From: Acidimicrobiia bacterium
GTDB taxonomy: Bacteria > Actinomycetota > Acidimicrobiia > Acidimicrobiales > Ilumatobacteraceae
Assembly (NCBI GenBank): GCA_043744155.1
Contig: JAYTVF010000423.1
Location: 1 to 45,311 of the forward strand
Length of the DNA: 45,311 nt
Direction of reading: 5' to 3'
Under the pieces are notes generated by a model. The model was not told the DNA's origin. It searched no databases and saw nothing but the letters and a program-made list of their open reading frames with translations. The position numbers were made by a program, and so were the translations under genes. Positions 22,850-41,729 of this stretch are shown here, in pieces (the first letter of the stretch is position 1; each line of letters starts with the position of its first letter).

Positions 22850-23787
22850 ACCCATTTGACTCGCTCGAAGCCGAACTGATCGACCTCGGTCAGCACTTGG
22901 CCATCGGCCAGCCCGTGGCCATCGGCCAGCCCGTGGAGGTCGGCCAGCCCGTGGGGGTCGGCCAGCACTTGGCCATCGGCCAGCCCGTGGGGGTCGGCCA
23001 GCAGGCAAACTTCGTGACGAGGGCGCCATGGCGTGCCCGACGCCTTCTGCAACTTGCGGCGGCGGTGCTTGTCATCCTGGCAGCGCTGTTGACATTCGGC
23101 CCGACGAGACGGGCCATCGCCAGATTTTTGGGGATCGGCGCCGTCCAAATCCAGTCGGTGCGCACGACCCTGCCAACCTCACCACCAACCACCCGATCCA
23201 GTGCGGCGCGCCCGTCAATCCCGACCGCCGGGTCAACGACCGCCGGGTCAACGACCGCCGGGCCGAGTGTCGTCGGCTCAACGACCGCCGGCTCAACGAC
23301 CGCACAGGGAACGGGGTCCACGGGTTCGGCAATTGGCACTCTGGCGTCTTCGAGCATTCCGGGCTCGGGCGCGAACAGTTCGCCTCAAACGATCAAGATC
23401 ACACCACCATTTCGGGCGCGCATGGCGCCGGATCGACTCATCCGTCAAGAACTCGACCACAGCGTCGGCGCAGGCATGCTGATTCTTAGCTATGAGAAAT
23501 ACACCTTGTTCGAGGTGGCATCGAAGAACTCGACCGTGTTCTTGATGGGAAAATTGCTGCCGCCGAACACCGTGGTGACCTTTACCAAGGTGCGAGGCGT
23601 AGATGCGGTATGGATCAGCGGCGAGCCGCACCAGGTCGTCATGTTCGATGACGACGGCACCTACCGAAGAGACACGGTCCGTACCGTAGGCAACGTGCTG
23701 GTTTGGTACGAGGACGGCGTTACGTTCCGCATCGAGGGCGTCAACAAACTCTCCGATGCGCAAGCAATCGCCGAGTCGCTGCAATAG
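22846..23787 (+). CDS. Single-pass membrane protein in the anti-sigma position, with a DUF4367-like C-terminal domain and two internal tandem repeats
   Basis: Its ATG overlaps the sigma stop (ATGA). TM helix LLQLAAAVLVILAALLTF. The C-terminus VWYEDGVTFRIEGVNKLSDAQAIAESL resembles DUF4367 ends seen in anti-sigma factors. The cytoplasmic N-terminus is mostly GQPV(A/G)(I/V) repeats. Confidence 0.7.
   Translation: MNPFDSLEAELIDLGQHLAIGQPVAIGQPVEVGQPVGVGQHLAIGQPVGVGQQANFVTRAPWRARRLLQLAAAVLVILAALLTFGPTRRAIARFLGIGAVQIQSVRTTLPTSPPTTRSSAARPSIPTAGSTTAGSTTAGPSVVGSTTAGSTTAQGTGSTGSAIGTLASSSIPGSGANSSPQTIKITPPFRARMAPDRLIRQELDHSVGAGMLILSYEKYTLFEVASKNSTVFLMGKLLPPNTVVTFTKVRGVDAVWISGEPHQVVMFDDDGTYRRDTVRTVGNVLVWYEDGVTFRIEGVNKLSDAQAIAESLQ
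22888..23001 (+). repeat. Imperfect 18-nt (hexapeptide GQPVxI/V) tandem repeat, about 6 units, inside a CDS
   Basis: DNA reads ggccagcccgtggccatc / ggccagcccgtggaggtc / ggccagcccgtgggggtc / ggccagcacttggccatc and so on. Peptide: GQHLAIGQPVAIGQPVEVGQPVGVGQHLAIGQPVGVGQQ. Confidence 0.85.
23224..23325 (+). repeat. 15-nt (pentapeptide GSTTA) tandem repeat tract inside a CDS
   Basis: gggtcaacgaccgcc and ggctcaacgaccgcc units. Peptide: AGSTTAGSTTAGPSVVGSTTAGSTTAQGTGSTGS. Confidence 0.8.
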
Positions 23788-33860: not shown

Positions 33861-33929
33861 CCGCCTTGCCTCGCTCGCCCGCCTCGCCTCGCCCGCCTCG
33901 CCTCGCCTCGCCCGCGTGACCGCCTCGCC
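33861..33929. repeat. C-rich short tandem repeat (CGCCTCG / CCCGCCTCGCCTCG units) in a convergent intergenic spacer
   Basis: ccgccttgcctcgctcgcccgcctcgcctcgcccgcctcgcctcgcctcgcccgcgtgaccgcctcgcc, read directly after the dehydratase stop. Confidence 0.7.
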
Positions 33930-34020
33930 AGCGTGCTGCCCGAGTGGTCTCAGACGATCCAGGCCATGGTGATGCCTGAACGGGAATTCGGCCGGGCGAT
34001 CGACGGCGAGAAGGCGCGTT

Positions 34021-37971: not shown

Positions 37972-39180
37972 TCAGCCAGCAACGAGCGTGTACTTCCCGC
38001 CCGCGATCTTCGACATGTAGAACTTGGCGCCCACGACATCGCCGTTGGCGTCAAGGGCCAGTGGGCCACCCAAGATGGTGCTGTCGAGCTTGGTTGACTT
38101 CACGGCCTTGACGATGTCGGCACGGGCACCGGCCTTGCCGTCCTTGCAGGTGGCCTTCACGCCAGCGGCGATCAGTTGAGCCGCAACATAGACGGGGGGA
38201 CCAAAGGTGCCGAACTTGTCATCGACGGCCTTCTGGTAGGCAGCAACCACCGGAGCAGCCGCGGCGACACCGCGCACGTCGGGGGCGAACGAGGCGACGT
38301 AGGCACCTTCGAGCGAGAAGTCCTTGGGCGAGTACACGCCGTCGCTACCGACGACGGCCGCCTTCTTGTTCTGCTCCTTCATCTGCGTGCCGAGTTGCTG
38401 GGCGTTGGCCGCGATCTGCCACGGCAGGAACACCGCGCCAGTGTCATCGGTGACCTTTCCGACCAGGGTGGAGAAGTCGACGGACTTCTGCGGGGTTGAC
38501 TCGCGCACCACGGTGACGTTCAGTGTTTTGAGCGCCGCCGTGGCTGAATCGGCCAGACCAGTGGAGTACGAGGTCTGGTCATCGATGATCAACACCTTCT
38601 TGGCGCCGATGGTCTTGGCCATGAAGTTGGCAATGGTGGGGCCTTGCGCGTCGTCGTTGGGTACGACGCGAGCAAAGGTCGGGATCTTGCCAGCGGTGAG
38701 GCTGGTGCGGGTGGCCGACGGCGACACGTACAGCAGATTTGCCGTGGTCATGGCCGGAGCGATGGCTTCTACTTCTTGCGAGCCCGCCGGTCCGAGAACG
38801 GCCACAATGCTGGTGTCGGAGACCAGTTTCTGCGAGGCAGTGGTGGCTTCGGCCGGGTCGAGCTTGGTGTCGGTCTCGACCAAGGAGAAGTTGGTGCCAT
38901 TGGCCTTGTTGTAGTCGTCCATGCCGAGCTTGCCCCAGTTGAGCTGCTCTTGGCCGATGGAGGCGGCGTCACCGGTGAAAGGCCCCATGAAACCGATCTT
39001 GGCTGCGCATGGCCCGCCCGCGGGGGTCGCAGCTTTGGCTGCGGTCGTGGCCACGGGTGCCGCGGTCGTGGCCGCGGGTGCCGCGGTCGTGGCCGGAGCG
39101 GCTGCCTTGCTGCTGCCGCAGGCCGCGGCCGTCAGCGTCAACGCCGTGATGACCACGGTCATTGTTCCTTTATGCATCAT
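37972..39180 (-). CDS. ABC transporter substrate-binding lipoprotein (LivJ/K-like, periplasmic binding protein type I)
   Basis: Internal start (ATG 39180/39177, or 39162 after AAAGGA) gives MTVVITALTLTAAACGSS (lipobox). It is followed by an A/T-rich linker and a Leu/Ile/Val-binding-type fold (KIGFMGPFTGDAASIG). Confidence 0.85.
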   Translation of the reverse strand: MMHKGTMTVVITALTLTAAACGSSKAAAPATTAAPAATTAAPVATTAAKAATPAGGPCAAKIGFMGPFTGDAASIGQEQLNWGKLGMDDYNKANGTNFSLVETDTKLDPAEATTASQKLVSDTSIVAVLGPAGSQEVEAIAPAMTTANLLYVSPSATRTSLTAGKIPTFARVVPNDDAQGPTIANFMAKTIGAKKVLIIDDQTSYSTGLADSATAALKTLNVTVVRESTPQKSVDFSTLVGKVTDDTGAVFLPWQIAANAQQLGTQMKEQNKKAAVVGSDGVYSPKDFSLEGAYVASFAPDVRGVAAAAPVVAAYQKAVDDKFGTFGPPVYVAAQLIAAGVKATCKDGKAGARADIVKAVKSTKLDSTILGGPLALDANGDVVGAKFYMSKIAGGKYTLVAG

Positions 39181-40457: not shown

Positions 40458-41549
40458 ATGAACGCAGCCACCAGCGTTTCGGCGGTGGGCACCGCCGAAG
40501 TCATGATCGAATGCCACGACATCGCGGCGGCACTGGCCTTCTATGTCGAACGGCTGGAATTTCGGGTCGACGCCATCTTCCCGGCCGAGTCTCCCTCGGT
40601 CGCGGTGCTGCGCGGCCATGGCATCCGACTTCGACTCGATCCGTCGGCGCGCTCCGCCGGGCTGGCGATTCGCCTGTCTGCGCAGGATCCCTCGGTGTTC
40701 GGCGGGGCAGGTCAACTCACCGCTCCCGATGGCACGGTTGTGCACATCATCGATGCCAACCCACCGCTGGTGTTGCCTACCGTGGCCCAGTCATTCGTCT
40801 TGGAGCGAGCCAGCGATGAGGCGGCTTGGACAGTCGGTCGGGCCGGGATGCGCTACCGAGACCTCATCCCCGGGCGCCAGGGTGGGCGGTTCGTGGCCTC
40901 ACATATCCACGTGCCCACGGCCGGCCCCGTGCCCGACTACGTGCATTTCCACAAGGTGCGGTTCCAGATGATCTACTGCTACCGGGGCTGGACCCGCCTG
41001 GTCTATGAGGATCAGGGCGAACCGTTCATCATGGCGGCCGGCGATTGTGTGCTGCAGCCGCCGCAGATCCGCCACCGAGTGCTGGAGAGTTCCGCCGACC
41101 TGCACGTCATCGAGATCGGCTGCCCGGCGCTGCACGAAACCATGGCCGACCCCGACCTGTCGTTGCCGAACGGTCGTGGCGATCCGGACCGTCTCTTTGG
41201 TGGACAGCGCTTCGCCTTCCATTCCGCCGCCGCGGGGGAATGGGTGCCGTCGGTTGATGGCTTCGATCGGCGCCGATTTGGGTTTACTGAAGCAACGTTT
41301 GGTCTCGCCGAGGCCGCGGTCTTGCGGCCGTCACCGGGTGTCGCCGTGTGGCCGGAGTCGATGCATGAAGGAGAATTTTTGTTCTTCGTCGTGGTGGCGG
41401 GGTCGGTGACACTGGGGCGTGACGATGGCGACGTGGTGCTCGAAGACGGCGATAGCGTCGTGCTGCCCGCCCATCAGCGCTACGGCTGGGCGCACCCGTC
41501 GCCCGATCTGCAGTTGCTCGAAGTCGCCCTCCCCGCTGACGTCCGCTAA
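40458..41549 (+). CDS. VOC/glyoxalase-like N-terminal domain fused to a (bi)cupin domain protein
   Basis: ORF track 363 aa. VMIECHDIAAALAFYVERLEFRV (VOC-like). YVHFHKVRFQMIYCYRGWTRLVYEDQGEPFIMAAGDCVLQPPQIRHRV (cupin). A second cupin-like segment near the C-terminus. Confidence 0.7.
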   Translation: MNAATSVSAVGTAEVMIECHDIAAALAFYVERLEFRVDAIFPAESPSVAVLRGHGIRLRLDPSARSAGLAIRLSAQDPSVFGGAGQLTAPDGTVVHIIDANPPLVLPTVAQSFVLERASDEAAWTVGRAGMRYRDLIPGRQGGRFVASHIHVPTAGPVPDYVHFHKVRFQMIYCYRGWTRLVYEDQGEPFIMAAGDCVLQPPQIRHRVLESSADLHVIEIGCPALHETMADPDLSLPNGRGDPDRLFGGQRFAFHSAAAGEWVPSVDGFDRRRFGFTEATFGLAEAAVLRPSPGVAVWPESMHEGEFLFFVVVAGSVTLGRDDGDVVLEDGDSVVLPAHQRYGWAHPSPDLQLLEVALPADVR

Positions 41550-41550
41550 G

Positions 41551-41670
41551 CGTCTGACCGGGTTCGACTGCGTGCGACCGCGTGCGACTGCGTGCGACCG
41601 GGTCCGACCGGGTTCGACTGCGTGCGACCGCGTCCGACCGGGTTCGACCGGGTTCGACCGGGTTCGACCG
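41551..41670. repeat. Intergenic tandem array: 12 contiguous units of a 10-nt repeat (consensus about SGTNCGACYG)
   Basis: cgtctgaccg ggttcgactg cgtgcgaccg cgtgcgactg cgtgcgaccg ggtccgaccg ggttcgactg cgtgcgaccg cgtccgaccg ggttcgaccg ggttcgaccg ggttcgaccg. A 20-nt super-unit, ggttcgactgcgtgcgaccg, occurs twice. Confidence 0.85.
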
Positions 41671-41729
41671 CGCCCGCTGGTGAGTCATCCCGCCGACACG
41701 CTGTCGGCTGGGGCGGGTACCATCCAGCC

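Follow-up and report, generated by a model that had tools for sequence, protein, structure and literature searches.

Within the window (the whole 45,311-nt stretch of DNA that was analyzed), genes for a class-V aminotransferase, a cupin protein, and a RAM-domain protein follow one another and are succeeded by a convergent gamma-glutamyltranspeptidase (GGT) gene. By direct reading of the sequence, the spacer between the cupin and RAM genes was found to hold an array of twelve head-to-tail 10-nt units (unit starts at 41550, 41560 ... 41660), which directly adjoins the cupin stop codon (TAA, 41547 to 41549), starting 1 nt past it, and ends 61 nt before the A of ATG 41730 (Table 1). An earlier note on this DNA had placed such an array right after the cupin stop and about 60 nt before this ATG, and the direct read agrees with that placement; its twelve contiguous 10-mers were likewise recovered, with their coordinates 1 nt off in register, the register being arbitrary.

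Units 2 to 12 all matched GSGTNCGACY, and unit 1 (GCGTCTGACC) had a single core mismatch (T for C). Six unit types were distinguished among units 2 to 12; they varied at positions 2, 5, and 10 only, with 7 of the 10 positions, the CGAC core included, invariant over these 11 units. Seen from the minus strand, the units are GGTCG-AACCC and GGTCG-CACGC, and the plus strand of the array contains 38% G and 34% C. Tandem Repeats Finder assigned period 10 to the array, with 11.7 copies, 84% matches, and no indels (score 129), and reported higher-order periods of 20, 30, and 50, the 50-nt period reaching 90% matches and a score of 193. The GSGTNCGACY pattern had 11 contiguous exact matches in the array and 2 more in the rest of the 45-kb window, compared with 3.6 ± 1.9 matches expected for the whole window, and a count of 13 was reached in none of 100 shuffles. 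The three terminal units were identical to each other, and an exact internal duplication of 28 nt is, as we read it, the mark of a five-unit block duplication. In a Logan assembly of run SRR23617271, a contig (L067) was 100% identical to the window over 3,827 nt and carried the first 6.5 array units (65 nt, exact) before breaking within the repeat; since it reproduces the start of the array, the array is not an artifact of a single assembler.

The product of the downstream gene was identified as a RAM-only protein of the AsnC type, as had been claimed from the sequence, and it has no DNA-binding domain. Homologues of this protein, of which 5 were found among 5.8 billion proteins, were all (5/5) exactly 86 amino acids long and had the same ATG start. 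None of the open reading frames (ORFs) that cross the array matched a Pfam family; with all downstream homologues beginning at the equivalent of ATG 41730, the three crossing ORFs are artifacts, as the earlier note had suspected. In annotation they should be dropped and the RAM gene started at ATG 41730, from a transcript that is probably leaderless. As the array is situated between the stop of the cupin gene and the ATG of the RAM gene and its units are contiguous and without spacers, it is, as had also been held, neither coding nor a CRISPR array.

Table 1. Coordinates of the genes and sequence features at the cupin-RAM spacer
Feature	Window position	Strand	Remarks
Bicupin gene, 363 aa	40458..41549	+	Pfam Cupin_2, 5e-16, two matched stretches; orthologues in L068 and L076
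Array of twelve 10-nt units	41550..41669		Direct read of the sequence
28-nt exact internal duplication, copy 1	41556..41583		Longest exact direct repeat
28-nt exact internal duplication, copy 2	41606..41633		50 nt downstream of copy 1; longest exact direct repeat
Degenerate 13th unit, GCGCCCGCTG	41670..41679		Decayed 3' edge of the array
Inverted repeat GCCGAC-N5-GTCGGC	41692..41708		-38 to -22 from the ATG; overlaps the -35 region
TACCAT, -10-like TANNNT hexamer	41718..41723	+	-12 to -7 from the A of ATG 41730
Stand-alone RAM (AsnC/Lrp ligand-binding) gene, 86 aa	41730..41990	+	Pfam PF01037, 1.6e-14, residues 7-76

The spacer and the RAM promoter in related lineages

Relatives were recovered through exact-protein look-ups of members of the 90% cluster of the RAM protein. 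Two further lineages with the identical four-gene order were obtained, one represented by L068 (Logan, SRR23617273) and the other by L076, L077, L078, and L079 (ENA and Logan). DNA identity was ~80 to 85% between each of them and the window, and likewise between the two, with flanks that differed by ~18% between the three lineages; the species representatives of the genus in GTDB were all more distant from the window (72 to 74% DNA identity). In these same-genus GTDB genomes, the cupin gene was present and the RAM gene and the array were absent; lacking the RAM gene, they are uninformative on the cupin-RAM spacer. Exact-protein look-ups with the RAM protein (three alternative starts) and with GGT yielded no further contigs and hence no other assembly that covers the locus in full.

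The cupin-RAM spacer measured 180 nt in the window versus 67 nt in L068 and 27 nt in L076 to L079. No array was found in this spacer in the L068 or the L076 lineage. Compared with the 12 units in the window, each of the two syntenic relatives carried one 9-nt proto-unit just past the stop codon (GGGTCGGCC in L068 and GCGTCGACC in L076), and such a motif would be a plausible seed of the array, present in the ancestral spacer. The absence of the array from two syntenic relatives indicates that it evolves fast. The earlier note had named absence from close relatives as a finding that would speak against its reading, and at the species level (L068 and L076) this absence is what we observed. In the orthologous cupin gene of L076 (L076:3778-3855; also in L077, with L078 and L079 beginning inside it), an in-frame 15-nt tandem repeat was present in 5.2 copies with 95% matches, and the protein is 399 instead of 363 amino acids long; tandem expansion in this clade evidently affects coding DNA, too.

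Upstream of the RAM gene, the TACCAT hexamer and its 6-nt distance to the ATG were kept in the window, L068, and L076, and the 15 nt directly before the ATG (GGGTACCATCCAGCC) were the same in all three, although the spacers of the two relatives were otherwise unalignable. Since relatives without the array keep GGGTACCATCCAGCC and the ATG unchanged, the RAM promoter appears to be independent of the array. In RAM homologues at 77% identity, which have a different upstream gene (HutD family), TAC[C/G]AT stands 6 to 7 nt before the ATG. In Mycobacterium tuberculosis, the leading promoter signal is a TANNNT motif with its center 7 to 12 bp ahead of the start site, and many mRNAs are leaderless (PMC3898074); the genome studied here is likewise actinobacterial and encodes eight WhiB-family proteins. 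From the position and conservation of TACCAT, together with this mycobacterial precedent, we infer that the RAM transcript is leaderless and starts at ATG 41730. All RAM-only homologues examined had TAC[C/G]AT at 6 to 7 nt ahead of the ATG, irrespective of the gene upstream. Members of this family of small proteins seem to have leaderless mRNAs. Among the homologues examined, the upstream neighbor of the RAM-only gene always encoded a cupin-fold protein (bicupin or HutD), which suggests a conserved cupin-RAM pair.

The entire array precedes the -35 region, the inverted repeat, and the -10-like hexamer. The inverted repeat is perfect over 6 + 6 nt (7 + 7 in the window), is kept in L068 with one change in the loop, and is missing from L076; it accounts for the sole stable hairpin when the region is folded and is a candidate operator. 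Its half-site CCGAC resembles the array core. As a regulon motif the palindrome proved uninformative, with 8 sites in the genome, this one included, and similar numbers at other spacings.

Tandem arrays in the genome and in other organisms

The genome is a metagenome-assembled genome (MAG) of 3.2 Mb in 519 contigs, 79% complete and with 63% G+C, in which further array copies may be unassembled. Tandem arrays with a period other than a multiple of 3 and at least 4 copies numbered 44 in this MAG (~14 per Mb). Their periods ranged from 4 to 32 nt, with period 10 in 3 of the 44 and no preference for periods of 10 to 11 nt. A same-genus genome of equal G+C content had 0 such arrays in 800 kb versus 11 expected (Poisson, 1.7e-5), and a same-family genome had 1 array in 380 kb. 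The word CGACC/GGTCG was part of the cyclic unit in 13 of 43 independent arrays versus 2.9 expected, which made it the top of all 512 pentamers; no pentamer got to 13 in 2,000 simulations. (GGTCG)5 was absent from 39 of the 40 relatives searched. Together, these counts point to a species-specific repeat burst with a common word. Loss of the mismatch-repair protein NucS as the cause of the repeat load was rejected, NucS being present.

Among the 23 arrays for which both flanks could be assigned, 14 lay between convergent, 7 between tandem, and 2 between divergent genes, often adjoining stop codons; these placements derive from rough GC3-based gene calls, which missed the small RAM gene, and are indicative only. 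Examples of arrays in the MAG are C187:22634-22747, C236:41-112, C446:11210-11262, C447:1-48, C183:1-104 and 602-713, C335:4702-4756, C484:1613-1789, and C247:4766-4931. Contig C236 starts with an Illumina TruSeq adapter tail (C236:1-40), after which come the 13-nt flank and (CGACC)n array also found at the end of C446 (C446:11197-11262); from this common flank and array it follows that C236 and C446 meet at one locus and that the start of C236 is chimeric or adapter contaminated. The window itself holds a C-rich array with periods of 5, 14, and 19 nt after a stop codon (33862-33935), a possible Rho-utilization (rut) site whose position matches the genome-wide habit of arrays adjoining stop codons, and arrays of 15 nt (23222-23303), 18/36 nt (22886-23003), and 21 nt (39036-39095).

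A scan for four consecutive units of the GSGTNCGACY pattern returned 28 stretches in 185,579 species genomes and 20 in JGI metagenome contigs, in hosts that included Verrucomicrobiota, Streptomyces, Myxococcales, Planctomycetota, Deinococcota, Gemmatimonadota, and others. Nearly all of these arrays were near-perfect repeats of one unit, and they lay in gaps between GC3-supported ORFs in all gene orientations. No neighboring genes were common to these arrays and the window locus; one GGT gene was located 4 kb from one of the arrays. Because the pattern was imposed by the query, such matches say nothing about a family, and the arrays look like independent slippage products. In the verrucomicrobial MAG WAS_Bin_30 (L019, L024, L033, L040, and L044), GGGTCCGACY arrays of 9 to 17 units were present on at least five contigs, and a contig of metagenome Ga0206847 (L050, L052) carried a 41-unit GGGTGYGACY array. 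GGGTCCGACY is a dispersed 10-nt satellite in a verrucomicrobial lineage, in a context unrelated to that of the window array. A search of the literature on 10-bp tandem repeats in bacteria found nothing pertinent.

Origin of the array and alternative readings

We consider it likely that the array is a lineage-specific minisatellite of the VNTR type in a repeat-prone genome and that it is neutral. In the ancestral spacer, a single copy of a 9- to 10-nt motif just past the cupin stop codon would have been amplified by replication slippage or unequal recombination. Single units would have been added first and blocks of about five later, and the spacer between the cupin and RAM genes, once a few tens of nucleotides long, would thereby have grown to 180 nt. 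The site would be permissive, as it lies past a stop codon and upstream of the compact and presumably leaderless promoter of the RAM gene, which was left intact. Most likely the array is without a sequence-specific function and would do no more than add 120 nt to a read-through transcript and shift upstream DNA away from the promoter. It would be one product of a genome-wide, species-specific tendency to form short tandem arrays, many of them on CGACC/GGTCG. The exactness of the 28-nt duplication and the identity of the terminal units, set against a flank divergence of ~18%, imply that the exact stretches are much younger than the species splits, and a recent expansion of the array is most likely.

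Some observations fit this origin less well. The invariance of 7 of 10 positions across 11 units is what a binding site would also yield; the nearest relatives, at ~18% divergence, leave room for a young, species-specific function; the three lineages form a trichotomy, for which parsimony alone also permits loss of the array in the other two; and the CGACC/GGTCG word shared among the arrays would not be expected from slippage alone and is a hint of some sequence-specific factor. Selection as the reason for the invariance of the core was rejected: 4 to 5 mutational events explain the six unit types, and such events would hit 3 positions or fewer with a P of 0.19 to 0.50. As so few events suffice, finding variable bases at only 3 of the 10 positions does not argue for selection. 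With a neutral minisatellite as the preferred reading, the comparison of the three species catches the birth of such an element from a single 9-nt motif beside an untouched promoter, and the locus illustrates neatly, in a natural setting, which sites tolerate such arrays, the array by itself being an ordinary fast-evolving minisatellite.

Gain and loss of units could instead make the array a contingency (tunable) locus, at which altered spacing of the upstream DNA, or of the end of the cupin transcript, to the RAM promoter brings about heritable and reversible variation in RAM or cupin expression. Tandem repeats near promoters act in this way in other bacteria (reviewed in PMC3899988), copy-number phase variation occurs in M. 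tuberculosis (PMC12817950), and the perfectly repeated stretches of the array would be able to slip. We nonetheless regard a tunable locus as unlikely, because the array is situated upstream of the -35 region and the palindrome and not between promoter elements, because there is no conserved upstream element (in L076 the cupin coding region occupies that position), and because heterogeneous units slip at a lower rate than perfect tracts.

The excess of arrays over the congener and their shared word might reflect a process peculiar to the lineage, either mutational or driven by a protein. That a sequence-specific process seeds and expands tandem arrays throughout the genome of this species, and that some of these, the 10-nt array among them, tune their neighbors, seems improbable to us; the candidates for such a process could be a protein that recognizes GGTCG/CGACC or a quirk of replication or repair at that word.

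In the earlier note, the 10-bp period was taken to place the core on one helical face, as a platform for wrapping or cooperatively binding proteins, and to favor intrinsic curvature. In its most specific form, a protein that binds direct repeats, for example a winged-helix regulator of the OmpR/PhoB type or a full-length Lrp/AsnC partner of the RAM-only protein, would polymerize along the units and activate or repress the RAM promoter from -61. The 10-nt period, the invariant CGAC core of units 2 to 12, and the end of the array at -61 from the predicted transcription start would suit such a protein. RAM-only proteins are able to form hetero-oligomers with full-length Lrp proteins (PMC2995911), and a second RAM-containing gene, a 173-aa open frame on contig C266, could encode a full-length Lrp partner; a hetero-oligomer of the two products is possible, although the DNA lends it no support. 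Set against this, the same promoter is present in both syntenic relatives, which lack the array; the RAM-only protein has no DNA-binding domain of its own; and Lrp-type proteins recognize palindromic sites of 13 to 17 bp (PMC2995911), whereas the units here are GC-rich direct repeats. With a model helical repeat of 10.6 bp, moreover, the face drifts by ~20 degrees per unit and by more than 200 degrees across the array.

Nor did the genome offer further sites. No other array of at least two strict units was found in the 3.2-Mb assembly, and GTNCGAC pairs elsewhere in the genome numbered 0 at 10-nt spacing, compared with ~1.5 expected, and 2 at 11-nt spacing. The absence of further paired units indicates that there is no regulon. 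Assessed as a PHO-box-like operator, the array did not recur upstream of other genes and was absent from the orthologous promoters of L068 and L076. With no second two-unit site and no preference for period 10, the helical-face platform found no support, and we hold regulation from it to be decidedly unlikely. In a wedge model with Bolshoy-type parameters, the ratio of end-to-end to contour length of the array was 0.905, which ranked it in the top 0.6% of random genomic 120-mers for curvature and only at the 15th to 23rd percentile of arbitrary 10-mer arrays, far below the curvature of phased A-tracts (ratios of 0.29 to 0.40).

It is very unlikely that the array serves as a transcribed element, be it a terminator, a rut site, or a structured 3'- or 5'-untranslated RNA. 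The array does begin right at a stop codon, as do several other arrays of the genome by rough gene calls; the relatives, however, do without it, and it shows no hairpin followed by a T run and no Rfam match. Scans for Rfam families, tRNAs, intrinsic terminators, and sigma-70 consensus sequences detected nothing relevant, one sub-threshold Rfam hit lying elsewhere. Folding of the array was less stable than that of dinucleotide-preserving shuffles (z = +1.87 for RNA and +2.88 for DNA), and structured RNA or DNA was rejected on these grounds. A rut site was rejected as well, G exceeding C on the sense strand, in contrast to the C-rich, G-poor composition of such sites. A G-quadruplex was rejected by eye, as only three consecutive GGG runs with loops of 7 nt or less were present.

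That the array itself or its copy number is an assembly artifact, as might be feared for a short-read MAG in 519 contigs of which one (C236) opens with adapter sequence, and with the Logan contig ending inside the array, is extremely improbable, given that an independent assembly matched the first 65 nt exactly, that the array is flanked by intact genes within a 45-kb contig, and that its units are heterogeneous, with longest exact repeats of 28 to 30 nt that k-mers above 31 resolve.

Comparison with known repeat systems

The array is most like the intergenic VNTRs or minisatellites of bacteria (for instance the MIRU/ETR type of mycobacteria; general reviews, PMC3899988 and PMC12817950). It shares with them short head-to-tail units in a spacer, probable growth by slippage or block duplication, a presence that differs between close lineages, and the lack of a coding role. 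It differs from MIRU elements in its 10-nt unit, as opposed to ~50 to 100 nt, and in standing outside any dispersed family with shared flanks; its copy number was compared between species only.

Phase-variable promoter tracts of host-adapted bacteria consist of perfect units of 1 to 7 nt with demonstrated switching and flanking regulator sites; in Neisseria, a phase-variable tetranucleotide tract is located upstream of the nadA promoter. Like these, the array is a tandem tract upstream of a core promoter, where its length could change promoter geometry; unlike these, its units are heterogeneous and no regulator site is located upstream.

The PHO boxes of Streptomyces, which are bound by regulators of the OmpR/PhoB family, are direct repeats of 11-nt units, typically 2 to 4 in number. 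The array resembles them in having direct repeats at about one helical turn, and GTTCGACC is superficially similar to GTTCACC, but its period is 10 and not 11, its twelve units are contiguous, no other sites are present in the genome, and it is missing from the orthologous promoters. With the iterons of plasmids and phages and with CRISPR arrays, it has multiple direct repeats in common; its units are contiguous and much shorter than iterons (17 to 22 nt) or CRISPR repeats, and there are no rep or cas genes nearby. In contrast to REP, BIME, and MITE-like families, the strict pattern of at least two units is confined to this locus, with the other arrays of the genome sharing the 5-nt word alone.
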